A stretch of DNA of 64,000 nt, from NCBI GenBank assembly GCA_964577565.1, contig CAZNZL010000001.1, positions 398,566-462,565 on the forward strand, given 5' to 3'. This document shows positions 2,050-38,105 of this stretch, piece after piece. Origin of the DNA: an uncultured Candidatus Saccharibacteria bacterium (GTDB lineage Bacteria > Patescibacteriota > Saccharimonadia > Saccharimonadales > JAGQNJ01). The notes beneath the pieces are model-generated. The model was not told where the DNA came from. It saw nothing but the letters and a program-made list of their open reading frames with translations, and did no database searches. The position numbers and the translations under genes were made by a program. Every line of letters starts with the position of its first letter. The first letter of the stretch is position 1.

Positions 2050-3753
2050 GTGAATCACTGGACAAAGAGAGTCCTCACGCTTGTCGCGTGGTGGCTGTGG
2101 ATCCCCGTCTTGTACCTGCTGATGCGAGGCATCGTTGCCCTGCTGTTCTCAGGTCATACGTGGGGTCGAGCAATGGACCAATGGCTGATGGCCAACATCC
2201 TTTCGGGTGGTGGCTGGCTCTGGATCATGCTCACCTTCGGCTTCATTGGTACTGGAGTGATCCTGCTGGCCGAATGGCTCGATGGAGAAACAGGCCCTCC
2301 TGTCTCACAAGCACTCGGAGTAGTTAGTCTCGTGTTGGCGCTTGTGATGATCGGCCAGACGGTTCGTGTGGAATGGGACAATGACAAGGACTTCGGGCGG
2401 TACTACAATGCCGCAACGACGTTCTACGTCTCTGACACCGACGAGCCGCCGACATCGCTCAATCTGCTGTTCAATGATGCACGGCAGAGCAACACCGACA
2501 AGTGCGACTTGGTCGGCGGAGCTGACGTCCCCAGCTGCATCAAGCAGGGAACGCTCAGCGAAGCTGGTTGGGATGCCCGCGTCGGGTCGCTCGATGGTGC
2601 CAAGATCGCTCTCAGGCGCACAACCGGTGACGCCCAACGAGTGAGCCTCAATGTCAAGACGCTGACTTACCTCAACGCTGGTGGTGAGCAGCAGGCACGG
2701 TGGAGCGGCATCATGGACGGCAAGGGCAGGCAACAGCCCATGGCGGGCGTCGCTGAATGGGAAGGCTCCGGCCAGCCCACGCAGTGTCAGTTTGAAGGGC
2801 AGTTCGAGCTCGACCGTGCATTCGGTGGAGAACGAATGAACAGCCTGCCAAACCTGCTGGCTGAGAAGTACCCAGCACTTCGCTGGAACATCTCTGACGT
2901 GTGGGGTTACTGCGACGGCGATGAGCCAATCGTGGTGATTCCGATGACACGCCAGATGTACTTCAAGGACCGGACGGTTGACACCGCCGGTGGCATCGTG
3001 ACGGTCAGGGGCGACAATGGCGATACGAAGCTGGAACATTTCAGCAGCGTCAAGCCGCGCCAGTTCCCCGGGCCGGTGTACCCGATGTCACTGGTTGTCA
3101 AGCAGCGTGATGAGATGCGTTGGGCAGCGGGCCGAAAGAACGCCGAGCCAAGTCGGGGTAGTTTCGGTTACGACCCAGCCACCTCAGAAGCGCAGGCTGG
3201 CAATGTGTCGGAATACCTGCTCCGCAACGCGGATACCGGCAGGCTTGAGTGGGTGACACCGCTGACGCTGCGTGGCAGCTCCTCGGAGCTCTTCGTGGCT
3301 TACGCAGTCACCCCCGCTGACACGGTGGCCGACAACCAGTTCAACGAGCTGTCGGTGTACGTCCTCGACGAGGACGATCCGCGACGGATCAACATCGACA
3401 ACCTCGAGGCGGACGCCCGGAACTTCCTGGCGACCAATGCAGGCACGTTCATCTCCAACGGCGGCAAGCTCATCGAGTTCACCCCCGTGGATGGAGACCT
3501 GTGGCGCGCCTTCGGCGAGCTGAACGGCCGGGTGGTCTACCGCCTGGACATCAGCGCTGGCAACAACATCCGTCCGAAGCTGGTCAACATCGGACCCTCA
3601 AGCGAAAGCGACGAGGAGGATCCCGACGAGCCCAGCAACGCCGCTTGCGGCAACGAACTCACTGAGCTCAGCCCAAAGCAATTGGGTGAGTGCCTCAGGG
3701 TGTTCACGGACGAGCTGGTCAAGCGCCAAGAAGTTGCCACTGGCACCTCCTAG
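2050..3753 (+). CDS. GC-rich integral membrane protein with a large Cys-containing extracytoplasmic domain and an acidic C-terminal tail (cassette A)
   Basis: Track ORF 2002-3753. I prefer GTG 2050 as the start because of GAAAGGA 7 nt upstream. It has 3-4 hydrophobic helices at the N-terminus, and sampled lines are 58-62% GC with GC-rich third positions. I recognise no family. Confidence 0.65.
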   Translation: MNHWTKRVLTLVAWWLWIPVLYLLMRGIVALLFSGHTWGRAMDQWLMANILSGGGWLWIMLTFGFIGTGVILLAEWLDGETGPPVSQALGVVSLVLALVMIGQTVRVEWDNDKDFGRYYNAATTFYVSDTDEPPTSLNLLFNDARQSNTDKCDLVGGADVPSCIKQGTLSEAGWDARVGSLDGAKIALRRTTGDAQRVSLNVKTLTYLNAGGEQQARWSGIMDGKGRQQPMAGVAEWEGSGQPTQCQFEGQFELDRAFGGERMNSLPNLLAEKYPALRWNISDVWGYCDGDEPIVVIPMTRQMYFKDRTVDTAGGIVTVRGDNGDTKLEHFSSVKPRQFPGPVYPMSLVVKQRDEMRWAAGRKNAEPSRGSFGYDPATSEAQAGNVSEYLLRNADTGRLEWVTPLTLRGSSSELFVAYAVTPADTVADNQFNELSVYVLDEDDPRRINIDNLEADARNFLATNAGTFISNGGKLIEFTPVDGDLWRAFGELNGRVVYRLDISAGNNIRPKLVNIGPSSESDEEDPDEPSNAACGNELTELSPKQLGECLRVFTDELVKRQEVATGTS

Positions 3754-3787
3754 CCTTCACAGCTAGCCTTTCTCAGGAAATGTGGAG

Positions 3788-3804
3788 CCTCTTGATCGAA
3801 GAGG
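3788..3804 (+). terminator. hairpin after cassette A (CCTCTT-gatcg-AAGAGG followed by taatttgtttc)
   Basis: A 6-bp stem 35 nt after the stop, with a U-rich tail. This is a weak intrinsic terminator. Confidence 0.35.
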
Positions 3805-4000
3805 TAATTTGTTTCGGTGTGCAAGCACCTAAAAGAAACGAATCGATCTGGTTGAGAGACACCAACAATCTCTCACTAGGGTGAGGTTGCTTGCGTTTGT
3901 TCAGCTTCGGCTGTTCAACCCTGCAATCTCCCCTTAACGATCCGTAGAGTAATAACTGCGCTGATGAGCCGTAACGGCGGCGAAATCGTAACTGAACTTG

Positions 4001-4027
4001 TTGACTTTTTAGCATAAGTGGTATACT
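4001..4027 (+). promoter_or_regulatory. promoter of the CAP-domain gene (TTGACT..TGgTATACT)
   Basis: TTGACT at 4001-4006 and TATACT at 4022-4027 with an upstream TGg. The sequence is nearly identical to the pdaD promoter at 37420-37447. Confidence 0.5.
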
Positions 4028-4056
4028 AGGCGTATCTTTAAAGTCAAGGAATAAAA

Positions 4057-5133
4057 ATGGCCAAAAAATCAAAAACAACTAAAAAATCTAACTATTTTAC
4101 TACCCTATCTCGTACCCAAAAATTTATCGTTATTGCTGTTGTAGCAATTGTGGGTTTGGCAACACTGCGCTTCCTATCTGCCCAATCTGCCAAGCAAAGC
4201 CTCAATCTTAATTTGCCCACTGAAAAAGTTGCTCTTAGCATCAGCGATGAAAAACCTATGGCTGTCAGCCGTGACGAGTCGGGCAAGCTTGTTTATGAAT
4301 CACGCGGTAAATCAGTTGACGTAACCGCCAGCGGTACCGTCTACTGTACGCCCGAAGGTAACGGAGAAGTTACCGCCGCTCAAATTACGCAAGAAGAAGT
4401 CGATAAAATTCTTACCGATGTTAAAAGTAAAAACCCCGAAGCCACGGCTGCCGACGCCAGTGATATAAAAACTTCGGTTGGCAACAATAAACAGCTTATC
4501 TTGGCCGATGATGGCTCGACTGATGTTTTAGTGGGTGATCAAAACAATGAAGCCCTTAAACAAGCCGAACAAATTTTGGAGGCGGTGTGTGATCGTACTA
4601 ACCAAACCGTACCAGCAGAAGCCGTACCAGTTATGACGCCCGACGATTCAAACAAACCAACCTCAACACTGAATAGTAGATTTAGCGTTATTCCTAAAGC
4701 AAGCGCTGCTGGCGGGACAACAGGCCAAGCAATTGAGCAAGACCAGATTAATAGAATTAATAACGAAAGAAGAGCGCGCGGTTTGCCAATCTTAGGGCGC
4801 TCTGAATGCTTAACGATTGCGGCCAGAAAATGGACAAACTATATGGCAACAACCAATGTCTTAAGCCACAGCAACCTCGTAGGGCCGGTAGAGAATAACT
4901 GCGGGGCAAATTGGTGGCAAAGAATTGGTGAGAACGTTGGCTACGGTGGAGATTCGGCTACTATTTTTAATGCATATATGAACAGTAAAGGCCATCGTGA
5001 AAATATTCTTAGGCCCGAATATCAACGCGTTGGCGTTGGTGCAATGACCTATAAACACCCAGCCAATCCATGGGTCTTAGTATGGACAACTCAGTTATTT
5101 GCTCAATGTAAGGGCGCCTGCGCTAACAAATAG
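4057..5133 (+). CDS. membrane-anchored secreted protein with a C-terminal CAP/SCP (YkwD-like) domain
   Basis: N-terminal TM segment, and a C-terminal region INNERRARGLP..GENVGYG..YMNSKGHRENIL..YQRVGVG typical of CAP/SCP/PR1-like domains. RBS is AAGGAA. Confidence 0.75.
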   Translation: MAKKSKTTKKSNYFTTLSRTQKFIVIAVVAIVGLATLRFLSAQSAKQSLNLNLPTEKVALSISDEKPMAVSRDESGKLVYESRGKSVDVTASGTVYCTPEGNGEVTAAQITQEEVDKILTDVKSKNPEATAADASDIKTSVGNNKQLILADDGSTDVLVGDQNNEALKQAEQILEAVCDRTNQTVPAEAVPVMTPDDSNKPTSTLNSRFSVIPKASAAGGTTGQAIEQDQINRINNERRARGLPILGRSECLTIAARKWTNYMATTNVLSHSNLVGPVENNCGANWWQRIGENVGYGGDSATIFNAYMNSKGHRENILRPEYQRVGVGAMTYKHPANPWVLVWTTQLFAQCKGACANK

Positions 5134-5266
5134 CTAATAGCTTTGCTGAAACTGCATCATGATGCTCAGCAAGCTCTGCAAAATGTTTCATGCCGCAATG
5201 ATAGCACGCCAAATCAAAATAACCATAAGTAGCTTGTACTTGATAACAGAGGCTGTGAGAAACTTT

Positions 5267-5986
5267 TTACTCCTGAGGCGAAACGTAGTGTGCTACAAGT
5301 TCGGCTTGTTCAGTAGCTTTAAATATATCATATGCCCATACAAGCGCCGCAATTCTATCCTCATAGTTGGTATAATCGCCGAATGGCTCTACAGTGACTT
5401 GCCGACATTCTGAACCATTGCTAACCATAAAATCTACCCCGTATCTTGGAGTAAAGTGTTGGAAATTTTTGATTTCAAGATTGCCGTTACCGTTCACATA
5501 AAATAATGGTGACCATGAGTTGATTCTAGCATCGCGGCTAGGCATCACAGCCCCTGAGTCATTTACAAATATAGCGTCCACGAATAGCTGCGCATCACCA
5601 TCTGTATCTACGGTCACGTCTTCAGTAAAAAAAGCTATTTCATCATTGAGCCTATACTCAGTATTGGTCATCAATCGTATATTTGGACCGATTTTAGGCG
5701 ACCCGTTTTGCCCGTGTACTTCAGGAACAAATACTGCAACTAAAGTTTCTTTGTCGTGACCATCAACCAATACGTTCGATACAGGATGAGAACGTTCTCG
5801 GTATACTGCCCATCCAGCTTTTCCATGTAGGGCATTAAGGCCTAGTAGTCTTTGGATAACGCTAGCCCTGAATTCGGCTACTCGTCCATAATACTGCGCC
5901 TCTAAAAATGTAGCGTTTTTCTCACGCAGCTCTTCAATAGCTTTTGCTTCTACGCGCTCAACCTCTGGCATTTCGAACTCGGCCAT
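5267..5986 (-). CDS. hypothetical protein (239 aa)
   Basis: Long ORF with ordinary composition. No recognisable motif. Confidence 0.55.
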   Translation of the reverse strand: MAEFEMPEVERVEAKAIEELREKNATFLEAQYYGRVAEFRASVIQRLLGLNALHGKAGWAVYRERSHPVSNVLVDGHDKETLVAVFVPEVHGQNGSPKIGPNIRLMTNTEYRLNDEIAFFTEDVTVDTDGDAQLFVDAIFVNDSGAVMPSRDARINSWSPLFYVNGNGNLEIKNFQHFTPRYGVDFMVSNGSECRQVTVEPFGDYTNYEDRIAALVWAYDIFKATEQAELVAHYVSPQE

Positions 5987-6193
5987 CTTGCTGCCTATTG
6001 TACTGGCTTATTAAATATTGTCTACTGTTAATTTGCTTGGTTACAAGGCATGAGCTTCGTTGATCATTGCCTCGCCAGGTTGAAGATCAATTTCGTCGGG
6101 CACTATTTCTGTCATAGCCTCGATAACTGCGTCATGAGGGTCTCGGTAATTTTCGGTTTAATTGAGAGGAAAGTTCGCTTGAAGGGTCGCTGG

Positions 6194-6239
6194 GCGGGGG
6201 TGGGCTTGATACTAAAGTACCAAAATTCACCACCCCCGC
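6194..6239. repeat. GC-rich inverted repeat / long-loop hairpin directly after the cassette B stop
   Basis: GCGGGGGTGG (6194-6203) and CCACCCCCGC (6230-6239) form a perfect 10-bp stem with a 26-nt AT-rich loop and no U-run. It starts 7 nt after the stop at 6247-6249. Confidence 0.5.
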
Positions 6240-6246
6240 GGCGACC

Positions 6247-6795
6247 TCAAGCTGACCTTCCTCGGTCGAGGCGAACGACGTTGTCCGGCTCGGCTGGATC
6301 TTGCCCGTGTTCGAGCATTGCGATATCGCGGTCGAGCTTCATGTAGCGCAGGAGGACCTTCCAGTCGCTTTTCGACGTTCTGACGCCCTTGAGCGCATAG
6401 CCCTCGGGTGGCTTGTAGTCGTTGCGATCTTTCTGGCCGAGGCCGTTGACGATGATGATCTTGATCATCCCGCAACGCTCGCAGCGTTCGGTCTCGTAGA
6501 ACGCGGCACCGATGGGGTGGTAGTCGAGCATGATGTCGACCTCATCCCAACGGTGTTGACGTGCCTTACACTGCGCGTGGTCGTAGCTTCGAGACTTGAA
6601 GTCTTCAAAGCTTTCACCAAGCTTGGGCTTGAGCGCGAACAACGCCTCGCGGACGTAACGCTCGCGACGCATGAGCTCGTTGAATTGAGCCCTCGTGATT
6701 GCGTCGTCGTCGTACAGCGCTTCGATCCGCTGCTTCATGGTCGGCGTGTTTGCCAACGCTGTCACCAACTTTCTGCTAGGGTACTTTCCTCTCAA
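6247..6795 (-). CDS. GC-rich hypothetical soluble protein with a CxxC pair (ETERCERCG) (cassette B); start uncertain
   Basis: Sampled lines are 55-57% GC with GC-rich third positions. Candidate starts are TTG 6795, GTG 6765 and ATG 6738. No domain recognised. Confidence 0.55.
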   Translation of the reverse strand: MRGKYPSRKLVTALANTPTMKQRIEALYDDDAITRAQFNELMRRERYVREALFALKPKLGESFEDFKSRSYDHAQCKARQHRWDEVDIMLDYHPIGAAFYETERCERCGMIKIIIVNGLGQKDRNDYKPPEGYALKGVRTSKSDWKVLLRYMKLDRDIAMLEHGQDPAEPDNVVRLDRGRSA

Positions 6796-6815
6796 ATTCC
6801 TTACGGAACTATATT

Positions 6816-6844
6816 ATTGTACTACATCATCGATATTTTGTCAA
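6816..6844 (-). promoter_or_regulatory. promoter of cassette B (TTGACA-17 nt-TACAAT)
   Basis: On the minus strand, TTGACA is at 6844-6839 and TACAAT at 6821-6816, in AT-rich sequence immediately upstream of the GC-rich CDS. Confidence 0.5.
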
Positions 6845-6919
6845 TAGACGGAGCGGTAACCACAGGTGTAAACTGCCGCCTACCCTGGGTGCTGCGCGGA
6901 ACGGGTGGCGAAGTTATTA

Positions 6920-7210
6920 TTACGCGCCCTGATTGGTGTCAGGAAATAACTGAATTACTTCCGCCTCATCGGGCGTTACCAAATGCAAGGTTGGCTGCCG
7001 AGCTTCATCGATCTCAGGCACTTCTTCAATTGTAATTTCACCGCCCGCACGAGTTATTGCACCACTCAGAGTACCTAGAAATTTCGCGGCGATGTCCGGG
7101 TGACTCTCTTCTCTGCCAGTACCCAGATTAATCACCGTAACATCGTTGCCGACCATGTCGTGCCGACGTTTTATACCCCATCTTTCGTTTGGCTGTTCTT
7201 TATCTGTCAT
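6920..7210 (-). CDS. hypothetical protein (96 aa)
   Basis: Track ORF with an AAGGAG RBS 7 nt upstream of the ATG. Confidence 0.5.
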   Translation of the reverse strand: MTDKEQPNERWGIKRRHDMVGNDVTVINLGTGREESHPDIAAKFLGTLSGAITRAGGEITIEEVPEIDEARQPTLHLVTPDEAEVIQLFPDTNQGA

Positions 7211-7261
7211 AAATAACTCCTTAATACTTTTATTAAACGGTAATTATAAGATGTACGCAAG

Positions 7262-7914: not shown

Positions 7915-8898
7915 TTATCGGGTTTGTTCCCAGGTAAACTCGGAGTGACCAAAGTGACCCCACCGGGCAGTAGCCTCGTAACCAGACCTCAGAAGTTCAA
8001 GCCACTCGATAATGCCATTGGGCGAAAGGTCATAGCCGCTAACGGTTTGCGGCTTGCCATCAATGATGACGCTAGCCTCAAGCGGCTGATCATGGCCAAT
8101 TGCATAGGCCAGCCGGCAAAAAACCTCGTTAGCTTTGTGTTTTTGTAGGTAATCTATGGCAATTTTACGAGCGGCATAGGCAGCAGAACGGTCAACCTTG
8201 CTTGGATCTTTGCCGCTAAAACAACCGCCGCCAATTGGAATGCGCGGCCCATAATTATCGACCACCAATTTACGACCGGTTAAGCCAGTATCGGCATCAA
8301 AACCGCCCACCTCCCAATCGCCTGCTGGATTTATGTGAAGCTTTGGGCTTGTGCCGGTTGTAGCGAGCGGCTCTTGTTGTAGCCAGGCCGATACTCTCTC
8401 TTGTAAATCTGGTTGTGAGGCGTGCTGAAAACTGGCAACGATAGACTCTATTAAACTACCGCGCAACGTTACCTGTGTTTTGCCGTCATGCGGCCACTCA
8501 TCATAGAGGTATTGATTAAGCTTACGGCTTAATACCACCTCGAGCGGCAACAGCTCTGGCGTCTCGTTGCACGCATAGCCAACCATAATGCCTTGGTCGC
8601 CTGCTCCGCCGGTATCGACGCCTTGGGCAATCTCGGGGCTTTGTTTAACCAAACGAACCTCAACCTCAACCTTGCCGGCTAGGCGTGTCACGATTGGCTC
8701 AACCGCAACCTTTGCGTTTGAGGTAACTTCTCCGACAACAAAGACTTTACCGTGGCCACCAACCGCCTCAACCGCTACCCGGGCAGCCGGATCCTGAGAA
8801 AGATAGGCATCTAAAATTGCATCTGAGATTTGATCGCATAGTTTATCTGGATGCTTTGGCGAGACGCTCTCAGCTGATTTATATTGCTTTGCAGACAT
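7915..8898 (-). CDS. metK: S-adenosylmethionine synthetase
   Basis: SVSPKHPDKLCDQISDAILD, GAGDQGIMVGYA and GGGCFSGKDPSKVDRSAAY motifs. The true start is ATG 8898 (AAAGGAG RBS). The track's upstream 69 codons are the riboswitch. Confidence 0.9.
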   Translation of the reverse strand: MSAKQYKSAESVSPKHPDKLCDQISDAILDAYLSQDPAARVAVEAVGGHGKVFVVGEVTSNAKVAVEPIVTRLAGKVEVEVRLVKQSPEIAQGVDTGGAGDQGIMVGYACNETPELLPLEVVLSRKLNQYLYDEWPHDGKTQVTLRGSLIESIVASFQHASQPDLQERVSAWLQQEPLATTGTSPKLHINPAGDWEVGGFDADTGLTGRKLVVDNYGPRIPIGGGCFSGKDPSKVDRSAAYAARKIAIDYLQKHKANEVFCRLAYAIGHDQPLEASVIIDGKPQTVSGYDLSPNGIIEWLELLRSGYEATARWGHFGHSEFTWEQTR

Positions 8899-9061
8899 AA
8901 AAAAACTCCTTTCTATCTGCCGCCGCGTAATCGGAGAAAAAGGAGCTTGGAACTCTGCTATCTTCCCCGCGTGCGGGCTGAATGTAGCACCAACATCCGT
9001 TACAAAACGGACAGGTTGCTGGTGGGTCGTAGGGTCAGTTCCCTCACCACACTCTTGATAG
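8899..9061 (-). promoter_or_regulatory. SAM-I (S-box) riboswitch with a terminator / SD-sequestering hairpin
   Basis: The minus strand reads CTATCAAGAGTGTGGTGAGGGAACTGACCCTACGACCCACCAGCAACC..TGGTGCTACATTCAGCC..GAAGATAG, which matches the S-box core. It is followed by CTCCTTT..AAAGGAG and U7 abutting the ATG. Confidence 0.85.
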
Positions 9062-9081
9062 GTTACATTGTTAACGTTTGT

Positions 9082-9110
9082 AGTATAGCGCAAACCTAGC
9101 AACAAACCAA
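9082..9110 (-). promoter_or_regulatory. candidate metK/riboswitch promoter (TTGGTT-17 nt-TATACT)
   Basis: On the minus strand, -35 is at 9110-9105 and -10 at 9087-9082, about 20 nt upstream of the aptamer P1. Confidence 0.45.
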
Positions 9111-14677: not shown

Positions 14678-15136
14678 CTACCGAATATAGTCAGCCAATG
14701 CTTGTAATACATCCGAGCTTGCATTACGCGTGTTAAGGTCTGAAGTTTTAATCCACCGTGACTCGACAACCTCTGATCGCGACGGCCGTAACGTTATTTT
14801 TTTAGGCAACGCAACCTTAAACAGCGCAAACGGAAACTCGAGCCCATTGTGGCGGTAGGTTTTATTGGCGAGTTTCTTAATTTGCGCGGGCGAAACGCGC
14901 AGTCCTATTTCTTCATCGACTTCCCTGATAATGGCTGCCTGTTCGGTTTCATGCGGCTTAATACCGCCGCCCGGTAATGACCACTTGCCGTTACCGAGCC
15001 ACGATTTTGTAACTACAATTTCATCATTAACCATAATCAATGCTCGTGTGCGCTTAGAGCGTTTTAAAAACACTCTTAAACCAGGCCACAATAGCCAGTA
15101 AACAGCCAGCCCTAAAATTGGTGGTCCTAGCTTCAT
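14678..15136 (-). CDS. NUDIX hydrolase with an N-terminal membrane anchor
   Basis: Nudix box GGGIKPHETEQAAIIREVDEEIGL. ATGA overlap with the pcrA stop. Confidence 0.8.
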   Translation of the reverse strand: MKLGPPILGLAVYWLLWPGLRVFLKRSKRTRALIMVNDEIVVTKSWLGNGKWSLPGGGIKPHETEQAAIIREVDEEIGLRVSPAQIKKLANKTYRHNGLEFPFALFKVALPKKITLRPSRSEVVESRWIKTSDLNTRNASSDVLQALADYIR

Positions 15137-18100
15137 AGTTTTTCTACACCCGCAAACGCAATATTAATTTTTTTGGTGCCCTTACCCTTAAAGTAAATCG
15201 TTGCCACGTCGCCGTCCATTTCAAGCACCGTACCAACACCAAAGACATTGTGTTTAATACCGTCGCCCTCATTAAGCTCGGGCACGTATCGTGGCTCGTC
15301 ATACGGGACCGGTTTTGTCGGCGATGGAGCTTCATCGTACGCCTGAGGCTGATGCATTGCCCTACCAAAACCAAGATTGTTCAAAAAACTATTTTCAATA
15401 ATTGATTCGGCATTGATCTCACTCAAGAAACGTGATGGCGGATTATGTTGCTGACCGCCGTACAGCAAACGACTGGCGGCATGAATCATATACAGCTCTT
15501 GCCGAGCCCGCGTCATACCCACGTAGCACAACCGGCGTTCTTCTTCCATTTCATGCTGGTCATATAAGGCACGTGAGTGCGGAAAGATCGACTCTTCCAT
15601 GCCGGTCATAAAGACCACCGGAAATTCCAGACCCTTGGCACTGTGCAGCGTCATGAGCGTTACGGCATTACCCTGAAGATCAACTTGATCAATATCACTG
15701 ATTAAACTGACCTCTTCTAAGAAGCCGTCGAGGCCCAAATCTTGATACTGCTCGGCCACACTCAGCAACTCCTTAACATTTTCTTGCCGCGATTCACCCT
15801 GTATGGTGCCGTCATCTAAATACGTCATGTAGTCAAGCCGCCTAATTAAAGAATCAATAACGCCGCTCACGCTCGCATCTTGCATAATGCTACGAAGGCT
15901 AATCAAAATATCAGTTAGCTCAACAAGGCCTTTGCGAGCTTTTGGTGTGATATCACTGCACTCAGAAGCCAAGTTAAGCGCCTCAAGCAAACGATAGTTA
16001 TTACGCGCCCGCCACGCCAAAAACTGCTCGAGCGACTTGGTGCCAATGCCGCGAGTTGGCACATTAACAATGCGCTCAAAACTAATAGCGTCTTCTGGTT
16101 GGTAAATGAGGCGCAGGTACGCCATGATATCTTTGATTTCTTTGCGGTCATAAAAACGTACGCCGCCAACGATCTTATACGGAATACCGTATTGCACAAA
16201 CGCTTCTTCAATGGAGCGGCTTTGTGCATTGGTACGGTACAAAATGGCAAAGTCACGGTACTGACGGGCACCAATGTCGACAGCGGTTTTAACACGCCGA
16301 ATAATTGCTTCGCCCTCCGCCCGTTCACTGGCTACCTGTAAGACTTGTACCGGGTGACCGTTGCCTTCGTCAGTCCACAGTTTTTTATCAGAACGTTGTT
16401 GATTCTTGGTAATAACAGCGTGGGCAGCATCAAGAATATGTTTTGTGCTCCGATAGTTGCGCTCTAGCTTGATAATGGTGGTGTCTTTATGGTCACGCTC
16501 AAAGTTAAGAATGTTTCTAAAATCTGCCCCTCTCCATGAATAGATTGAATTGTGAACTACGATCCCGTTCGCACTATAGTTATGAACCTGCTCGACATCA
16601 ATATCATACACATCACCGTCATAGTCGCTGCGACCCACCGATTCTATTTGTACCTCTTCAATCGCATCACCCTTGACAACCGGCAACATCATGCCCGGAT
16701 ACACATGCGCCGCTGGAGTAAAATTAAACTTCTTGTCTGTTAGAAAGGCATATTTAACGATCGTGATATTGCTGAGCTTATCTTTCATCCGGTTAATAGT
16801 TTCTTCAAGTTTACCGTAGTTAAGATTATGAACTTCAGCGCGTGAAGTTCCAGCTTTTCCAGCGCGCACCCTAAACCCAAGTCTGTCTAACACCATTAAC
16901 GATTGATTGTCGGATGTATTAATCGAAAGTCGACTAGCCGACCATGGACTCTGCTGAGTAATGCGCCGATCACCAAACAGCACGAGATTCAAAGCGACGC
17001 GTGCAATGCTGCCCCGTGACGTTGCCCCCGGTATAAAGTGAGGGTAATCCTCAAGTAAACCGAGTTCATCGAATAGATCCTGAGCTCGTTTACGCGTGTC
17101 TATTTGACTGTATATAGCATCTATGTAATTTTGACTAAATTTCATCTGTCGATTAGAGAAAGCATGGAATACCATCATTGGTATACCATATTTATAGGCA
17201 AGTAATGACTCGTTGAAAACTGCCTCTTCTCGATTTTCACACACCTTAAGAATCCACATTTTATCGGCTCGTTCTTGATTGGCACGAACCCGCAATCCTA
17301 TGTCGTCTTTCTTGCCATCAAATCGAGTACCCTTTGTAAAGCCAATTCTATAGCCATAGCGCGTCGAATACATAAGATAAACAAAGTATGAATCAGTGTG
17401 GGCCCATCGTGTGAACATAAGATGGTTGGGGGTGCAACGAAAGGTTTGCCCATCAACAGTAGTAATCTGTACCAGCTTACCCTTGTAGTGTGATCGTTTT
17501 TTTCTGGTTACGGGAAAATGATGCGTCTTACCATACCCAGCGGCTGCCTTAACAAGCGTTCCTTGCTCAATGTCTTTTATCGCTCGTGGTCCATGAACCG
17601 TTTCAATCAGGCTATCGGGCAGAATACATTGCCAGTCGTCCCCGACAACCGCGATATTGTTGTGCGGTCCGGTTAGTAATTTAATAAGCCGGTACTGGGC
17701 TGCGTTAGTATCTTGGTACTCATCGATGAGCACATATTTAAACTGTTGCTGCCATTTTTCTCTGATGGTCTGATGCTGTTCGAGCATAGAAACCGTACGC
17801 GCAATCAAGTCATCAAAGTCTAGCGCATTGGCTTCTTTGAGAAGCGCCTGATAATGCGGAAAAACTTTAGCCGCTGTTTCTTGGATTGGCCCGGACGCTA
17901 GACCAAGGTAAGCCTCTGGGGTCAGCAGCTCATTTTTAGCAGTGCTGATAATGTTTGCTGTGGTACGAGCCGGAAAACTCTTTTCATCAATTGAAAGTTG
18001 TTTGTTAATTTTTTTGATGGCGTTTAAGCGATCTGCTTCATCAAAGATAACAAAATTCGGGTGAATGCCGGCCTGCTCACCACTAGCCCGTAGTAAACGC

Positions 18101-18396
18101 ACACAAATAGCGTGAAAGGTGCCAGCATACGGCATAAATGAGCGGTTGTCTGGGTTTTCGCCCAGCAGCGCTGCAATGCGTTCGCGCATCTCTTTCGCTG
18201 CCTTATTGGTAAATGTCACTGCTAAAATGTTAAATGGTGTAGCCCGGTTAGAGGCCAGTATGTACGCTATGCGATGCGTTAGAGTTTTGGTTTTTCCGCT
18301 ACCCGCCCCAGCCAAGATTAATAGCGGGCCTTCAGTTGTTTCAACGGCCCGTCGTTGTTCAGGATTAAGACCTTCAAGTAGTTGATGCTCCACCAC
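15133..18396 (-). CDS. pcrA: ATP-dependent DNA helicase PcrA/UvrD interrupted by an intein
   Basis: GAGSGKT (motif I), LIDEYQDT (II), VGDDWQ|..|SIYSWRGA (III, split), YRS, and LMTLHSAKGLEFPVVF..VGMTRA. The extein is about 727 aa once residues 257-616 are removed. Confidence 0.9.
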   Translation of the reverse strand: MVEHQLLEGLNPEQRRAVETTEGPLLILAGAGSGKTKTLTHRIAYILASNRATPFNILAVTFTNKAAKEMRERIAALLGENPDNRSFMPYAGTFHAICVRLLRASGEQAGIHPNFVIFDEADRLNAIKKINKQLSIDEKSFPARTTANIISTAKNELLTPEAYLGLASGPIQETAAKVFPHYQALLKEANALDFDDLIARTVSMLEQHQTIREKWQQQFKYVLIDEYQDTNAAQYRLIKLLTGPHNNIAVVGDDWQCILPDSLIETVHGPRAIKDIEQGTLVKAAAGYGKTHHFPVTRKKRSHYKGKLVQITTVDGQTFRCTPNHLMFTRWAHTDSYFVYLMYSTRYGYRIGFTKGTRFDGKKDDIGLRVRANQERADKMWILKVCENREEAVFNESLLAYKYGIPMMVFHAFSNRQMKFSQNYIDAIYSQIDTRKRAQDLFDELGLLEDYPHFIPGATSRGSIARVALNLVLFGDRRITQQSPWSASRLSINTSDNQSLMVLDRLGFRVRAGKAGTSRAEVHNLNYGKLEETINRMKDKLSNITIVKYAFLTDKKFNFTPAAHVYPGMMLPVVKGDAIEEVQIESVGRSDYDGDVYDIDVEQVHNYSANGIVVHNSIYSWRGADFRNILNFERDHKDTTIIKLERNYRSTKHILDAAHAVITKNQQRSDKKLWTDEGNGHPVQVLQVASERAEGEAIIRRVKTAVDIGARQYRDFAILYRTNAQSRSIEEAFVQYGIPYKIVGGVRFYDRKEIKDIMAYLRLIYQPEDAISFERIVNVPTRGIGTKSLEQFLAWRARNNYRLLEALNLASECSDITPKARKGLVELTDILISLRSIMQDASVSGVIDSLIRRLDYMTYLDDGTIQGESRQENVKELLSVAEQYQDLGLDGFLEEVSLISDIDQVDLQGNAVTLMTLHSAKGLEFPVVFMTGMEESIFPHSRALYDQHEMEEERRLCYVGMTRARQELYMIHAASRLLYGGQQHNPPSRFLSEINAESIIENSFLNNLGFGRAMHQPQAYDEAPSPTKPVPYDEPRYVPELNEGDGIKHNVFGVGTVLEMDGDVATIYFKGKGTKKINIAFAGVEKL
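16549..17628 (-). mobile_element. intein (360 aa) inserted in helicase motif III
   Basis: It starts with Cys (CILPDSLIETVHG), has the block B motif TPNH, and ends VYDIDVEQVHNYSANGIVVHN followed by +1 Ser. It sits exactly between VGDDWQ and SIYSWRGA. Confidence 0.85.
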
Positions 18397-24473: not shown

Positions 24474-24750
24474 AGATCACCATATACTTGATTTTTAAGG
24501 AGCAACATTTTTATGTTGGAGCTCATGATATTATAACCTCAACAAATATTAGGAGCGGAAACTGCTAAATGATTGCGATGGGACCGCGTCAGAACCGACG
24601 GTCAACTTCTGCAAAACTCATCGCTTTACTACACGTTTTAGTCGCTTCTTCCTTTACCCTCAAAAAGAATCCCCTCTTTTTGAGGACCCCATCTACGCCT
24701 TTAATGAGGTAAATAACTGGGGTATTGTAGCATTTTTATCCTCAAAATAA

Positions 24751-24773
24751 AACCCTCTGGTAGCCAGAGGGTT
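24751..24773. terminator. bidirectional intrinsic terminator hairpin
   Basis: AACCCTCTGG-tag-CCAGAGGGTT, flanked by an A-run upstream and a T-run downstream. Confidence 0.55.
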
Positions 24774-25059
24774 TTATTAGAGTTAGAGCGGTCAGTCAAA
24801 TCGCTTACTTATGTGAATAACACTAGCACAATTCTAACGACTTGGCTAGTGTTTATCCACAGCTTTTTGTGGTTCGCCATGTTAAGTCCTGCTTTCTAGC
24901 AAAGCCAGAAACTCTGCCTTAACACTCTTGCAACCATACTTTGTTGCGAGGTTGCGGTACGCAGTCGGCGTATTAAATATACGTCTCCTTTGCGTTCCGC
25001 CCTCGTGCCTCGTCTAGTTGCAAGCGAACTCACAAAACTATGAAAGATGTTTTGACTGA

Positions 25060-26625
25060 TTAGCCGTTTCGGCGACCGTATACCAATCGGTGTGCAGTTG
25101 CACCAGCTACAGTAACCGCAGCTACAATGCCAGCTACATCACCCGCACCCGTGACAGGCAACTCTGAAGGTTGCTCTGGCTGAGTTGGGGGTACTGGCTT
25201 AGCCGATGTATACGTAACCATGCTTTCACAAGTTTGGCTGGTTACGCCTGGCTTGTCTTGACCATCAACTGTAAAGTTAACTTTACCCACAATCTTATAG
25301 GTACCGTCTTTAGCGTATTCGTGTTCAACTGAAGTTTGATCAGTTAACAACGGTGCTGTACCGTCACCAAAATCAAAGGTGTAGTTTTTAACTTGTACGT
25401 TGCCAGTAAAGCTTGGCGTAATGCTTACGCGTACTTTTCGGCCACCAAGTTGGTCAACCTTGATGAGCTTACACTCATAGGTTGGTTTCTTTGGCTCTTC
25501 TTTAGGCTTACATTTACCATAATTAACATTTATGGTTGCAGTCTCCCAAATTGCTCCGAACCCAGTAGGTGTAGCAAACGCTTTGTTTGTGATTTTCTTG
25601 GTACCACATTCATCCTTTTTGCCATCACTTACTTTCGTACGGAAACCAAGGTACGCTATACCGTTAGGGTTATAGTTACCAATATCGACGTTAACCTGTC
25701 GGCCATTGGCCTGAACAGCTGAAGCTGGGTAAACATAACCATTTGGGTAGTTACCATTAATCAGCTTAACCGTACCAGGAACAACTTCTACTCCAGCAGG
25801 AACTTCGTCAACAATCTTCACATTCTTAAGCTCAGTAGAGCCAGCGTTCTTAAATGTAATCATCCAAGAAACATTGTCACCAGGCTTAACGTCAAGATTT
25901 TTCTGCCAAGAACCATTTTGCTGGCCAGCCATGCTAACCTGCTTATCGATGGTGTAGCGAGGTGATTTAACCTTAACCTTAAAGGTTACAAGCGCTACAT
26001 ACTCAAAACAACCCTTCATTGTACCGTTGACGTTATTATCGCCAATCTTCACACCACCCTTAACGATTTCATCGCTAACTTTTTGATCAATAAAGTTTGT
26101 TTTAATGGTTGCAGAACCAGGAACATAATCTAGTTGTACAGGATACTCACCAGTCATGCTCAAAGTGTCTTCAATTACTTTTGGTTGTGCATTATCTGCA
26201 CTCACAAATGCTTTAGCAGTTTGTGATTTGTTGAGGCCATCAGGCAGCTCAACGCGTACACGTGTATTCTTAGCCACGCCTTTGCCGCTTGCATTATGCT
26301 TTGGATCAGCGCCGTTATGAACATACACGCGCATTAAAATTTCGTCACCGTCACGCACGCCGTTCATCGGGTCATAAAAACCGTCTGGAGCGCCTGCTAT
26401 TTTACCGTGAAAGAAATTCCGTTCATCACCAATGTTAGGAACACCGGTAAATGAGTTAAACGTAACGTGATCAAAACCAGGGGTACCCGGGCCTTGATAT
26501 TGCTTAACAGGTCGGTCCCCGCCAAGCAACGCCATACCTACTGCACTCATACTCACAAGTGTTACTGCAAACAATGCAGCGCTTGCAATGAGTTTTTTAG
26601 GCAGGCGGTTAAATAGTCTCTTCAT
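25060..26625 (-). CDS. LPXTG-anchored cell-surface protein with DUF11-like and PKD-like repeats
   Basis: Signal peptide; PKD-like segment YTFDFGDGTAPLL..YAKDGTYKI. The C-terminus carries LPVTG, a hydrophobic stretch and RRNG. Start moved to MKRLFN (AAGGAGG RBS). Confidence 0.8.
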   Translation of the reverse strand: MKRLFNRLPKKLIASAALFAVTLVSMSAVGMALLGGDRPVKQYQGPGTPGFDHVTFNSFTGVPNIGDERNFFHGKIAGAPDGFYDPMNGVRDGDEILMRVYVHNGADPKHNASGKGVAKNTRVRVELPDGLNKSQTAKAFVSADNAQPKVIEDTLSMTGEYPVQLDYVPGSATIKTNFIDQKVSDEIVKGGVKIGDNNVNGTMKGCFEYVALVTFKVKVKSPRYTIDKQVSMAGQQNGSWQKNLDVKPGDNVSWMITFKNAGSTELKNVKIVDEVPAGVEVVPGTVKLINGNYPNGYVYPASAVQANGRQVNVDIGNYNPNGIAYLGFRTKVSDGKKDECGTKKITNKAFATPTGFGAIWETATINVNYGKCKPKEEPKKPTYECKLIKVDQLGGRKVRVSITPSFTGNVQVKNYTFDFGDGTAPLLTDQTSVEHEYAKDGTYKIVGKVNFTVDGQDKPGVTSQTCESMVTYTSAKPVPPTQPEQPSELPVTGAGDVAGIVAAVTVAGATAHRLVYGRRNG

Positions 26626-27246
26626 ATTAACCTCCTTAAAGGTAATGTTCTTTAACAAAATGTAAACCTTATTCTTGCCGCTCTAATTGTTAAAGACCAA
26701 AACTGTAGAGGCACCTATGCTTGAGCATAGACCCCACCTCACAGTCGTGCTTTATATTACCATTTCAATTACACTTTGTCAATATTATGGTTATGCTTTC
26801 TTCTAGATTGTTAAAGGACTTGATCTACCTCTTGGCTTACAAGAGATAAGTCAAATCATTACAATCCACAATCATGCTTATTTTGGGTTTAGCGGGGGCA
26901 TTCTTTAGGTTTAGTCAATAAAGACTAACTTTTAAGAATGCCCACGCGGGTTAACTATGTACGCGAACCGGTAAAGGCTCAAGCGTTTCAACACATATGT
27001 TGGTTTTTGCTGCATGACTGCAAGCGGGTTTTACCAACAACCAGTTGACGAGTTTGCGAGCAAGTAGCTCAAGCGAAAGTCGCCAACATGCGAATGGTGG
27101 TGGGTTTGTCTAAGCGTTGCCACTTAGTTAATAGCCGTGAGGCTAACCAGGTCCACCAAACCTACCTCGGTTTTCCTACGCAAGAGGAGAGGAAGGGAGC
27201 GTAGGTGAGCTCACGAGGCATTGCTCGAAATTACCGACCAGAACCG

Positions 27247-29089: not shown

Positions 29090-29846
29090 GATGACCTCCC
29101 TTCCCCAATGCGGGAAAGTAAGCAGTCCCGAGGATTTCTCGAAACAGGCTGATCTCCCACATGGTAAGGAGCAGCGCGGCAGCCATCAAGTTATTTGATC
29201 GCTCTCGCGCCACTCCTTAGCACAAATTCCACACCAGCAAACCTGCCAGCTAGCAATGCTAGCCGCACCGTTTGCTTCTTGGTTATTTTTGACTCACCTC
29301 TTCCGGTACTCCTGCAACATATTGCTATACGTCTTAGTCTGTTCCTCAGAGCTTCATCAAAACTAACTCAAGCGTGTAATGTGCGCATGGAAAGGAAGCA
29401 CATGTTGTGTTAGTGTTGAATGTTACATAGTTGCTCTGCTCAATCAGGGAGATATTGCTACCTCTACCCGAGAGCAAACCGCCTATTACTAGTATTACCC
29501 TGTTTTATACCAAATTATGACAATATATTGATATGGTTTGTTAGCTAGTATTAGATGGCTTGCCCTCAAGTACACTCCTGACAAACAGATTACTAAATAT
29601 CTGATTACACTGATGTAGTGCGGTGTAATGCGAGGAGCGAACGAGGCACGCCCAGAGACGTATAAATAATACGGCGAGGACGTACCGGAGTTCAGCGACA
29701 AAGCAGAACACCGTAAAGCAGAAATGGTGTTTCACCTATGGTGAAAACATATTTCTGCGATAGATCAGTGTAAAAATGAACTGTAATGATCTGACTTGTT
29801 AAATTGCATCCAACCTTACAAACTGGGGTCGCATGATAAAAGACGG

Positions 29847-29981
29847 CAAAAAACAACAGATAACCTCTGTTGCTTCTCATTCCACCTCTGTTAAAAGTTT
29901 AGCGTCCCGTTACGGATGTACACTCACCTCACATCTGTAATTGGATGTTTACATACTATCACATTTAGGCATAATAGTCAA
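29847..29981 (-). ncRNA. candidate ~100-nt sRNA (promoter + terminator), or alternatively the leader/5' part of a 62-aa hydrophobic ORF
   Basis: On the minus strand, TTGACT (29981-29976)-17 nt-TAGTAT (29958-29953). About 90 nt later comes CAACAGA-ggtta-TCTGTTG (29872-29854) followed by U6. Confidence 0.3.
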
Positions 29982-30411: not shown

Positions 30412-30427
30412 AGTCTCACCCTTTCTT

Positions 30428-32428: not shown

Positions 32429-32508
32429 AATGTCTCTTATTTATCTTAAATTATGTTTATGTTTGTAATAGTACCACACAAATGCATTTGCAAAAAAAAC
32501 TTTCTTGA

Positions 32509-34713: not shown

Positions 34714-34783
34714 TATTAGTATTGTAGTTTTTTTTTACTATTTCGTATAGTGAACGACTTATTTAGGGCATAATAATAACCAT

Positions 34784-36834: not shown

Positions 36835-37328
36835 TATATTAGATTAGCACGATTCTGCCAGTCGCTGGCTTGGTATACGGCAACAACCATGGCACATACC
36901 GGTAAGTGCGTACAGGTTTTACCGACAACCTCCATATGTATGGGGCCAAAATCAACATTACGGGTAGCCATGAGTGCCTCAAGGCTTTGCTTGATATCGC
37001 GACGAACGGTTTTTTCACTGTTGCCTTCGTGCTCAACAAACAGACCTTTGCCGGTTGCTTTATCTTGCACCCAGCCAATACCGGCCCATGCCTCTGCATT
37101 GGGCGTATCTACTCGTTGTTCGGCCATTACCACATATAAACGATCACCCCAGTTACCGGGTAAATCTTTAAGCGGTTTGTCAGATACTTGAATCTGTGAC
37201 TCAGGCGGGATAACTGAACTCAGTCGCAACAGATTGTAATTGGCTATGCCCGCATGATTAAGGGCAGCATCAAACGCAGCCAACTTTGTGGGGCCAGAAC
37301 CGATTCCTTTGCTGAGTTTAATAATCAT
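36834..37328 (-). CDS. pdaD: pyruvoyl-dependent arginine decarboxylase
   Basis: GIGSGPTKLAAFDAALNHAGIANYNLLRLSSVIPP, including the Ser-Ser self-cleavage site. Size 164 aa. Confidence 0.82.
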   Translation of the reverse strand: MIIKLSKGIGSGPTKLAAFDAALNHAGIANYNLLRLSSVIPPESQIQVSDKPLKDLPGNWGDRLYVVMAEQRVDTPNAEAWAGIGWVQDKATGKGLFVEHEGNSEKTVRRDIKQSLEALMATRNVDFGPIHMEVVGKTCTHLPVCAMVVAVYQASDWQNRANLI

Positions 37329-37348
37329 AGTTGTTCCTTAAAACGAAA

Positions 37349-37396
37349 AATACTCGTGCAGGGGCGCCTTGGTTAAGGTGTCCACACACGAGTATT
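37349..37396 (-). promoter_or_regulatory. terminator-like leader hairpin between the pdaD promoter and the RBS (candidate attenuator)
   Basis: AATACTCGTG / CACGAGTATT perfect 10-bp stem with a 28-nt loop containing CCTT-aacc-AAGG, followed by TTTTTCGTTTT and then AAGGAA-N6-ATG. Confidence 0.5.
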
Positions 37397-37419
37397 AATC
37401 TTAAAAAGTACTGTTAAGC

Positions 37420-37447
37420 ATTATACCTCATATGCTAAAAAAGTCAA
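37420..37447 (-). promoter_or_regulatory. pdaD promoter (TTGACT-16 nt-TATAAT)
   Basis: The minus strand reads TTGACTTTTTTAGCATATGAGGTATAAT, matching the CAP-gene promoter at 24 of 27 positions plus one indel. Confidence 0.55.
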
Positions 37448-37469
37448 GCACAAAATGCTTATGCTTTCT

Positions 37470-37518
37470 GGGGACGGGAGGTGAGAACTTATTACAGTTC
37501 AATCAGACTCCCGTCCCC
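37470..37518. repeat. GC-rich inverted repeat / long-loop hairpin directly after the cassette D stop
   Basis: GGGGACGGGAG (37470-37480) and CTCCCGTCCCC (37508-37518) form a perfect 11-bp stem with a 27-nt AT-rich loop and no U-run. It starts 8 nt after the stop. Confidence 0.5.
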
Positions 37519-37526
37519 TATGTGTA

Positions 37527-38036
37527 CTACCGTATGAGCATGGAAATGCCGCTTCCGATTCCGAGCCCGTGAATGAGTGCGAACTCAAGAGCGTACAGGC
37601 CGCACAGCCAGAAGCCCAGGCGGTAGGCCCCATCCTGAGAAACGGCATTACGGCGACGTAGCCACAACACGGTAAGAACGCCACCAATAAGGAGGCTCAT
37701 CGGAACAGCAACCGCCACCGAGGTGACCTTACTTTTCAGCTGATCCTGCCGTGCCTGCAGCTCAGGGTTCTTCCGCTCTAGTTGTAGTCGGTTTAGCATC
37801 TTGCGAGCAAGCTTACCGGGGTTGGGGTTCAACCCTCGTATCAAGAGCCAGTATCCCACATTCCAGTAAATCGCCAGCGCAGCGATTGCCGATACCAGTG
37901 GATGAACCTGAGCTAGACCCCAGAATATCCACCCAAAGGCGAGATCGTCAATCACAACCAAGAACGCAAACAACTCAATCCAATAGTACAAGGTTCGGAG
38001 ACGCGACTGGTGCCGCACCTCGGTGTTATCAACCAT
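37527..38036 (-). CDS. GC-elevated 4-TM membrane protein (cassette D)
   Basis: Sampled lines are 55-63% GC. AAAGGAAA RBS 6 nt before the ATG, and hydrophobic helices. No domain recognised. Confidence 0.55.
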   Translation of the reverse strand: MVDNTEVRHQSRLRTLYYWIELFAFLVVIDDLAFGWIFWGLAQVHPLVSAIAALAIYWNVGYWLLIRGLNPNPGKLARKMLNRLQLERKNPELQARQDQLKSKVTSVAVAVPMSLLIGGVLTVLWLRRRNAVSQDGAYRLGFWLCGLYALEFALIHGLGIGSGISMLIR

Positions 38037-38076
38037 GCGCGTTTCCTTTCACTCGCAGCGATCAGATAACAACAAT

Positions 38077-38105
38077 ATTATACAATATTAGTTACTACTG
38101 GTCAA
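38077..38105 (-). promoter_or_regulatory. promoter of cassette D (TTGACC-17 nt-TATAAT)
   Basis: On the minus strand, TTGACC is at 38105-38100 and TATAAT at 38082-38077. Confidence 0.5.

Follow-up and report, generated by a model that had tools for sequence, protein, structure and literature searches.

Four GC-rich blocks, designated A, B, C, and D, stand out in a 64-kb stretch of DNA from an uncultured Candidatus Saccharibacteria bacterium (contig CAZNZL010000001.1; the whole stretch is referred to here as the window). They comprise five open reading frames (ORFs), namely A, B, C1 plus C2, and D, with a G+C content at third codon positions (GC3) of 0.64 to 0.76, compared with 0.24 to 0.55 for the remaining ~65 ORFs (0.30 to 0.50 for native genes) of the window, whose overall GC content is 44.7%. 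We conclude, with a probability of roughly 0.6, that these blocks are long-resident expression modules, inherited as wholes, in which the GC-rich composition of the coding sequence (CDS) is actively maintained. Both the GC composition and the dedicated RNA structures at the 3' ends of the genes are conserved far beyond what amelioration theory would lead one to expect, and it is this persistent, gene-confined GC plateau that is the unusual part. A full-text literature search found no paper on GC-rich islands or hammerhead ribozymes in Saccharibacteria.

Composition of the GC-rich blocks and its persistence

The window, which encodes glycolytic enzymes, type IV pilin-like proteins, a DUF5663 protein, metK following an S-adenosylmethionine (SAM) riboswitch, and a P-type ATPase, was compared with related contigs designated L001 to L039. 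Among these, L001 and L004 (also L014) represent a sister species with ~80% nucleotide identity to the window. The GC/AT junctions are not assembly artifacts, as L002 and L003, two Logan contigs assembled independently, match window positions 3546 to 6742 at 100% identity. Where A and C2 begin, the GC step is blunter than an earlier note on this DNA had implied.

The codon shift of the GC-rich ORFs is toward both G and C in all degeneracy classes, with C/(C+T) at 0.79 versus 0.39 and G/(G+A) at 0.77 versus 0.35, and their amino acid usage is shifted as well. By this measure, the genes are atypical for the resident genome in the way that genomic islands are. Translational selection was considered as a cause of the high GC3 and rejected as unlikely, since G- and C-ending codons are both elevated in every degeneracy class; the ordinary GC3 of the native glycolytic genes and pilin genes counts further against it.

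None of the five cassette proteins has a match in Pfam or NCBIfam. Of the products, described earlier as envelope or unknown proteins, A, C1, C2, and D are membrane proteins or lipoproteins, whereas B is soluble, of unknown function, and not evidently an envelope protein. AlphaFold2 (AF2) models of A and D, with predicted local distance difference test (pLDDT) scores of 82.5 and 87.9, respectively, have no match in the PDB at an E value of ≤0.001 by Foldseek. Gene A has ~213 detectable homologues, and 14 relatives of C1 were found. B has only four homologues among 5.8 billion proteins, and the D family has 33 representatives among 1.8 billion; a metagenome scan with the single D protein yielded one locus, L038.

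All four units occupy corresponding places in the sister species (L004, L001, and also L014), promoters and hairpins included, and thus predate that split. Gene A forms a single-gene GC island in at least nine Saccharibacteria species, with a GC3 of 0.71 to 0.89 and flanks of 0.43 to 0.55 GC, and adjoins CAP and metK genes in L004, L014, and L005. C1 has syntenic orthologues in L001, L035, and L037 at a GC3 of 0.71 to 0.81, where the native genes are at 0.26 to 0.41. It lies between the DUF5663 gene and a PKD-domain gene in the window, L035, and L037, even though the window C1 shares only 44 to 47% identity over aligned columns with its counterparts in the latter two (32% and 42% in the best BLAST alignments), whose GC3 is still 0.74 to 0.81. 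Noncoding blocks on both sides of C are conserved with L035, and a small ORF (GC3 of 0.74) upstream of C1 in that contig is equivalent to C2 by position alone.

The fourfold degenerate sites carry the argument for persistence. If the G and C residues were leftovers from a donor, sites that are G or C in both members of a pair would be mostly ancestral and hence identical. In the close pair, such sites are identical at a frequency of 0.88, against 0.58 expected. The deep pairs differ: identity is 0.55 to 0.68 for A (0.53 to 0.57 expected) and 0.56 for C1 versus L035 and L037 (0.54 expected). The GC-richness is therefore not a relic. Despite this essential randomization of fourfold sites between deep lineages, their GC content (GC4) stays at 0.65 to 0.87.

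A few A lineages have departed from the plateau. L011, in which A has a GC3 of 0.46 and no hammerhead ribozyme follows it, is nested with 100% support inside a clade at a GC3 of 0.84, and L012 (0.57) stands beside L013 (0.89), although this relationship is poorly resolved (26 to 58% bootstrap). The A lineages that lost the ribozyme have relaxed toward genomic GC (GC3 of 0.46 to 0.59).

Promoters, leaders, and 3' RNA structures of the units

The near-consensus sigma-70 promoters noted earlier are indeed present before A (12/12), B (11/12), and D (11/12). Only eight sites of ≥11/12 exist in the window, and three of them serve native genes (HSP20, PvlArgDC, and the gene beside a pilin gene), so that the cassette promoters are ordinary strong promoters of this organism. 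The purine-rich ribosome-binding sites (RBSs) are also as described, with the exception of B, where GAGAGGAAAG overlaps the first in-frame TTG; the start of B is uncertain, being TTG at 6795, TTG/GTG at 6768-6763, or ATG at 6738. Homology to the sister species stops at the -35 box of the B promoter. The -10 box and RBS of D are conserved in L001, and here, too, homology stops at the -35 box.

Gene A has the most elaborate upstream region (Table 1). Counterparts of its promoter, matching at 9 to 12 of 12 positions, are located 129 to 181 nt upstream of A in L004 to L008. Between the two 12/12 promoters of the window lies an element of ~180 nt (1662-1840) that is found upstream of A in every case. 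It is better conserved (80 to 95% in L004, L014, and L005) than the neighboring genes, with positions 1700 to 1799 being 95% identical to the sister species, and is possibly a small RNA, a leader, or a small ORF. The leader proper contains the conserved blocks GCTGAGGAGC and GTACATTC, and its RNAalifold prediction is a long hairpin with compensatory changes at 13 of 22 pairs over seven species, which makes it a candidate cis-regulatory RNA. Neither the element nor the leader has a match in Rfam.

At the 3' end, the earlier note had placed a hairpin after all four blocks. Those of B and D are strong, that of A is modest (z = -1.35), and the stop-adjacent one of C is not significant (z = -0.84). 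After A there are two small hairpins, of which the second does carry a U-rich tail, and compensated changes are visible among the L004, L005, and L010 sequences.

Farther downstream of A, we find a predicted type III hammerhead ribozyme. Its core (C3-U-G-A-N-G-A9, G12-A-A14, the A15.1-U16.1 pair, and H17) is present and invariant in nine aligned examples and is surrounded by three helices, open at helix III, in which 13 of 15 pairs change on both sides. In this alignment, 95.6% of cells are paired, compared to 25 to 44% for slid controls, and none of 500 shuffles reaches the observed values. A covariance model built on the hammerhead matches downstream of A in 11 of 11 Saccharibacteria loci in which A has a GC3 of ≥0.68. 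It has no match in three loci where A is at 0.46 to 0.59 (L011, L012, and L025), nor in any actinobacterial locus. Rfam Hammerhead_3 (RF00008) scores 19.1 bits (E = 0.15), far below the gathering score of 48.5; that model expects longer stems and loops than this minimal form has. A RAGATH-21 match (E = 3.2) and microRNA matches were dismissed as noise. Two loci have a pair of hammerhead copies, ~610 nt apart in L009, and in L020 bracketing 4.8 kb with GC-rich genes inside. The hammerhead and the leader RNA are most probably new examples of RNA classes already known.

The promoter, the structured leader, the two small 3' hairpins, and the hammerhead accompany the A CDS over at least nine species. 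Because promoter, leader, and ribozyme travel with the CDS, the flanks of native appearance are part of the inherited unit rather than a landing pad. A has been relocated as a block in L007 and L010, as has B in L004.

The likeness between the B and D hairpins is exactly as first described, with stems of 10 to 11 bp, loops of 26 to 27 nt, a start 7 to 8 nt past the stop codon, and no U-run. No other perfect stem in the window reaches ≥9 bp with ≥75% GC, and at ≥10 bp and ≥80% GC, the two observed compare with a mean of 0.17 in block shuffles. Their "loops" fold into an inner A/U stem, giving two-tier hairpins of -31.4 kcal/mol each (z = -4.6 for B and -6.7 for D), neither of which has a match in Rfam. 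The search for this design elsewhere, proposed in the earlier note, covered 252 kb of Saccharibacteria DNA from related loci, where four of five independent long-loop GC stems follow genes with a GC3 of ≥0.64; a GC-rich CDS followed by a GC-clamped hairpin recurs in L013, L012, L037, L038, and L039. Within the window, each hairpin sequence is single copy, and in the related loci it is restricted to the orthologous position. That the hairpins might be REP-like (repetitive extragenic palindromic) elements is not borne out, as there is no multicopy consensus palindrome in either data set. The motif GCGGG...CCCGC was tried as a common hairpin base and discarded, being not enriched (three found versus 0.87 expected) and forming a hairpin in just one of the three cases.

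As terminators, the B and D hairpins are not canonical, for the 10 nt after the stems, CCAGCGACCC and AGAAAGCAUA, contain no U-tract. Ordinary U-tract terminators are found at native genes of the window, e.g., at 24746-24778 and 57477-57505. The B hairpin is conserved in L004 and L014. In L039, where B has 49% protein identity and is likewise GC-rich, the arms GCGGAGGGTGG...CCACCCTCCGC begin 5 nt after the stop and correspond to the window hairpin with one compensated stem change. The D hairpin is ~96% identical in L001, in which the CDS is 88% identical. In L038 (52% identity to D; GC3 of 0.57, with flanks of 0.34 to 0.46 GC), a different 11-bp GC hairpin stands right after the D stop and is followed by a canonical terminator, which suggests that the GC hairpin is not itself the terminator.

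Block C differs in its signals. It has its own GC-rich RBSs, GGGAGG for C2 and GAGGAGG for C1, as reported earlier. Its apparent lack of a promoter is only partly upheld: there is no strong one, but a 9/12 site at 29981-29953, ~890 nt upstream, falls in a conserved block (29840-29981) that may serve operon C as a distal promoter or leader. The ~1 kb upstream of C2 (29090-30093) contains no credible ORF, and two islands in it, 29840-29963 and 29435-29492, are conserved with L035; the first holds the promoter-like site and a 14-pair terminator-like hairpin. A hairpin analogous to the one downstream of C1 is found in L001 (11504-11552), with compensated arms. The regions around C have no Rfam match. 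Across the start region of the neighboring PKD gene, there is a conserved inverted repeat of 13 to 16 nt with a spacer of ~30 nt (window 26646-26699, L001 11772-11827, and L035 9766-9827), possibly a translational control structure.

Table 1. Features of the four GC-rich units and positions of related hammerhead copies
Feature	Position	Strand	Remarks
Promoter P1	1628..1655	+	TTGACA-16-TATAAT with TG; 12/12 match; upstream of conserved element 1662-1840
Conserved noncoding element linked to A	1662..1840	+	91% identity to L004, L014; 80% to L005
Promoter P2 of A	1861..1890	+	TTGACA-18-TATAAT; 12/12 match
Structured 5' leader of A	1896..2049	+	RBS GAGAAAGGAA at 2035-2044; conserved blocks in seven species
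Gene A	2050..3753	+	567 amino acids; membrane-anchored; ~4 transmembrane (TM) helices plus beta-rich ectodomain; GC3 0.75
Two small hairpins, then U-rich tail	3755..3815	+	Likely terminator of A; conserved in L004, L005, L010
Type III hammerhead ribozyme (predicted)	3935..3991	+	Complete CUGAUGA...GAAA core; predicted cleavage after C3942
Two-tier GC-clamped hairpin after B	6194..6239	-	10-bp stem; 26-nt loop; 7 nt past stop
Gene B	6247..6795	-	Small soluble protein; CxxC motif; GC3 0.75
Promoter of B	6816..6844	-	TTGACA-17-TACAAT; 11/12 match
Two-tier hairpin 300 nt downstream of C1	26892..26947	-	-28.6 kcal/mol; z = -8.1
Gene C1	27247..28401	-	Lipoprotein signal; Pro-rich C terminus; GC3 0.76; RBS GAGGAGG at 28410-28416
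Gene C2	28580..29089	-	4-TM protein; Pro-rich tail; GC3 0.76; RBS GGGAGG at 29096-29101
Conserved block upstream of C	29840..29981	-	9/12 promoter-like site plus hairpin; 79% identical to L035, surroundings unalignable
Two-tier GC-clamped hairpin after D	37470..37518	-	11-bp stem; 27-nt loop; 8 nt past stop
Gene D	37527..38036	-	169 amino acids; 4-TM protein; GC3 0.64
Promoter of D	38105-38077 (region 38042..38105)	-	TTGACC-17-TATAAT; 11/12; RBS GAAAGGAAA at 38050-38042
Hammerhead copies elsewhere	L004 4100-4156; L005 6878-6934; L006 6812-6869; L007 6927-6983; L010 6886-6941; L013 6767-6821
Two-copy hammerhead loci	L009 2185-2258 and 2871-2927; L020 2071-2125 and 6899-6947

Several further observations concern neighboring genes. 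The promoters of the CAP-domain gene downstream of A (3996-4023, plus strand) and of the pyruvoyl arginine decarboxylase gene downstream of D (37447-37420, minus strand) are identical at 18 of 20 nt, spacer included (TTGACTTTTTTAGCATA...), which suggests a common regulator site. The segment at 38100-38850 above the D promoter, with a DUF6886-like ORF at 38145-38621, is unalignable with the sister species, marking an insertion or deletion directly beside unit D. More genes with a GC3 of 0.66 to 0.91 stand beside AT-rich native genes in L013 (1470-4712), L005 (5-1164), and L020 (2364-3647); single-gene GC-rich islands thus seem to be common in Saccharibacteria. A UvrD/PcrA-type helicase (15133-18396, minus strand) contains an intein, with Pfam Intein_splicing and Hint matches at residues ~255 to 616. 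The SAM (S-box) riboswitch upstream of metK (8955-9064, minus strand; Rfam, 58.8 bits) implies that the long TTG-started metK ORF of the ORF list (7915-9105) overruns its leader.

Origin, probable exchange, and proposed maintenance of the units

To account for the recurring order of promoter, GC-rich CDS, and GC hairpin, it had been proposed that foreign CDSs are taken up by competence pili and recombined, time and again, into promoter-proximal landing pads that end in a hairpin. Pilin-like genes are encoded in the window, and A is of actinobacterial origin, both of which agree with this idea. The junctions do not. A blastn-short comparison of all nine flanks gave the two look-alike downstream promoters as its sole matches and no flanking repeats. 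The absence of any integrase or transposase was confirmed in 55 native ORFs and the cassette ORFs, where there is no reverse transcriptase either, and no attC core is present. The tRNAs, at 24.4 and 50.9 kb, adjoin none of the units. Interspecies homology stops at the -35 boxes and just past the hairpins, as rearrangement between transcription units would produce. Because the units are also old and syntenic, the leader RNA, ribozyme, and hairpins coevolve with their own CDSs, and searches for donor homologues of C1 and D found none, we regard recurrent capture as highly improbable.

A foreign origin is demonstrated only for A. Its named homologues are from Saccharibacteria (55 to 83% identity), Nocardia (~50%), Frankia, Thermomonospora, and Actinomadura, and the GC of gene and flanks contrasts in 10 Saccharibacteria loci (GC3 of 0.71 to 0.89) but matches in 16 actinobacterial ones. 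In a neighbor-joining (NJ) tree, the main Saccharibacteria clade (88% bootstrap) is sister to Nocardia, and the Saccharimonadia sequence L024 groups with Frankia (92%), indicating at least two transfers of A from Actinomycetota. Actinomycetota are paraphyletic around the Saccharibacteria clade, and actinobacterial and Saccharibacteria alleles are unmixed. The transfer of interest here is ancient, A having come in from Actinomycetota in an ancestor of the clade. Every known Saccharibacteria host belongs to that phylum (PMC11659515 and PMC8406219). The donor analysis proposed in the earlier note thus succeeded for A, whereas it revealed no actinobacterial homologue of C1 or D (C2 was outside the search) and, for B, only a weakly matching hypothetical protein from Gordonia phages (34% identity; E = 2e-4). 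D had no match in plasmids or phages and C1 none in plasmids, and on readable contigs the relatives of both look Saccharibacteria-like. It is this lack of named donor relatives for C1 and D, with the weakness of the phage match of B, that confines the demonstration to A.

Could the genes, then, be fairly recent and unameliorated imports from high-GC Actinomycetota hosts or their phages, with the AT-rich flanks as insertion sites and the hairpins as the donors' U-less terminators? Composition and codon usage are actinobacteria-like, and the homologues of A in Nocardia and Frankia and the phage match of B are what such a history would leave. Recent substitutions in A and B are AT-biased (17 GC→AT versus 3 AT→GC), and L011 and L012 show that decay can occur. 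Nonetheless, the units and their flanks are shared with lineages whose fourfold sites are randomized relative to the window, and at its one syntenic site, C was already GC-rich before the lineages diverged to 29 to 47% C1 identity (aligned columns) and has stayed so. The monophyly of Saccharibacteria A argues in the same direction, as does the search for donor-type terminators, which found nothing comparable to the hairpins downstream of A in the Nocardia, Frankia, and Actinomadura loci. We therefore consider recent import unlikely.

Synonymous divergence adds a second process. Between the window and its sister species, the synonymous divergence (dS) of the cassettes is 0.43 to 0.97, while most native genes exceed 2 or are saturated. 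Divergence from L001 is also mosaic outside the cassettes: among saturated neighbors, the PKD gene (25060-26658; dS of 0.67, 88% nucleotide identity) and a 452-amino-acid gene (38843-40201; 84% nucleotide identity) have diverged little, which suggests recombination between species. Around the 3' end of D, identity is 93 to 96%, beside a gene at 55 to 77%. The low cassette dS is compatible with later exchange of whole units among related Saccharibacteria by homologous recombination, and this is what is left of the competence idea; such exchange is likely, if occasional.

Recombination might even be what holds the composition. The cassettes would then be transformation hotspots, receiving DNA from Saccharibacteria or host homologues and kept GC-rich by GC-biased gene conversion or by CDS-confined replacement from GC-rich copies. 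The low dS, the higher identity around the 3' end of D, and the block relocations of A and B are in keeping with this, and a shift to both G and C is what a mutation-like or conversion-like force gives. That such conversion operates in bacteria has been suggested (see the discussions in PMC2936529 and PMC6867656). However, the PKD and 452-amino-acid genes are equally little diverged, yet have a GC3 of 0.37 and 0.31, and GC-richness does not extend to the leaders and 3' untranslated regions coinherited within the exchanged units. The searches turned up no host homologue of C1 or D, and the actinobacterial and Saccharibacteria alleles of A do not mix. Maintenance by recombination is, in our estimation, possible but rather doubtful.

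The interpretation that we favor is that of resident, individually regulated modules with maintained composition. Each is made up of its own sigma-70 promoter (a candidate one in C), in A a structured leader, a Shine-Dalgarno site, a GC-rich CDS, and a gene-specific, conserved 3' RNA structure. The last is a U-less two-tier GC-clamped hairpin in B and D (farther downstream in C) and two small hairpins with a predicted self-cleaving hammerhead in A. Such a unit may act as a high-output module, in which a strong promoter drives a GC-rich message and the 3' hairpin or ribozyme sets and shields the 3' end while insulating the gene that follows; the hairpins themselves might serve as factor-independent terminators or as blocks to 3' exonucleases. 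We infer a force toward GC that is confined to the CDS, for which selection on the message, biased gene conversion, and CDS-confined allelic replacement are candidates. The most likely would be selection on the mRNA, through stability, structure, or decoding speed.

A number of points weigh against this interpretation. The cassette dS is 3 to 5 times below that of most native genes, and by our own calculation, weak GC selection would lower dS by ~15 to 20%; the gap is too large for such selection and points to the later unit exchange between species. The AT bias of the recent substitutions, polarized in L004 and L014 with the window as the outgroup, is what plain decay would predict and does not separate decay from mutation-selection balance. 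It shows that mutation wears GC down, and a comparable AT bias is a general feature of GC-rich genomes, even those at equilibrium (PMC2936529). For the window and L005, the shallowest of the deep pairs, a GC4 of ~0.66 could still be reached by simple decay if the ancestor was very GC-rich, so that it is the deeper pairs, with 60 to 130 sites each, that carry the argument. Randomized high-GC sites would also be expected if diverged GC-rich donors outside the sampled set had each supplied the genes independently, a history excluded only by synteny, the conserved AT-rich flanks, and monophyly in the NJ trees. Finally, the functions ascribed to the hairpins and the ribozyme are predictions, and the evidence from this genome covers 64 kb.

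Implications and comparison with known systems

If the GC content is truly maintained, the window is a natural experiment on bacterial GC, as genes 30 to 45 GC3 points above their neighbors lie in the same genome, under the same mutational background, and keep that level, while sister lineages that lost the ribozyme relax. Population data and recoding in genetically tractable Saccharibacteria, among which Southlakia epibionticum is reported to undergo natural transformation, could then tell selection from biased gene conversion. There is also a caution for the study of horizontal transfer. An unusual composition is commonly taken as a sign of recent transfer and used as a basis for host prediction; for block C at least, that conclusion would be wrong. 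Gene A, acquired long ago from the phylum of the hosts, codes for a conserved protein of the cell surface; together with its leader RNA and hammerhead, it offers candidates for how an episymbiont may regulate its host-interaction genes. A further proposal, which we hold to be speculative and improbable, is that the host-like (actinobacterial) base composition of dispersed, mostly envelope-protein genes is itself a selected trait, kept up over times sufficient to randomize all silent sites, with the 3' RNA devices belonging to the same module. The composition would then be functional, for example by coupling the output of host-interaction proteins to what is scavenged from a high-GC host, be it G/C-rich nucleotides or other resources, or alternatively by making messages unusually durable for a host-free dispersal stage.

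U-tract-less ("I-shaped") intrinsic terminators and 3' stabilizer stem-loops have been described mainly in Actinobacteria. The B and D hairpins resemble them in having a very stable GC stem right after the stop and no U-run, but differ in being two-tier, with an A/U inner stem, and in an organism whose native genes use U-tract terminators. Integron cassettes are likewise short units in which an imperfect, bulged hairpin comes a few nucleotides after a single CDS, with several units per genome. In contrast to these, the units described here have no IntI, attI, or tandem array, and their hairpins are gene specific and vertically inherited. The hairpin bases, GCGGGGGTGG/CCACCCCCGC and GGGGACGGGAG/CTCCCGTCCCC, lack the RYYYAAC/GTTRRRY cores, and the units are scattered at 2, 6, 27 to 29, and 37 kb amid housekeeping genes, with A, B, and D having their own promoters.

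Type III hammerhead ribozymes are known from bacterial intergenic regions (PMC3088659; Rfam RF00008). The one after A shares with them the full catalytic core, three covarying helices, and an intergenic location downstream of a gene of unknown function. It is unlike them in its minimal form, with stems of 4 to 6 bp and no evident loop-loop tertiary contact, and in its tie to one GC-rich gene family, where its loss coincides with lost GC-richness.

Under the amelioration model, reportedly that of Lawrence and Ochman, horizontally acquired islands drift toward the composition of their new genome. The GC-rich blocks match such islands in their atypical GC content and codon usage, in the phylogeny and composition contrast of A, and in the amelioration seen in L011 and L012. 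Horizontally acquired genes of atypical composition have been described (PMC8461475). Unlike such islands, the blocks lack mobility genes, tRNA anchors, and flanking repeats; there is one gene per unit, with regulatory RNA of native type; the loci are orthologous across deep lineages; and the composition is undecayed despite the turnover of silent sites. Genome-wide GC selection or biased conversion (PMC2936529 and PMC6867656) offers a similar picture of AT-biased new mutations with GC held over the long term, whereas here it is a few dispersed genes in one genome that are set apart, by a GC3 step of 0.3 to 0.5 with borders near the ends of the CDS.

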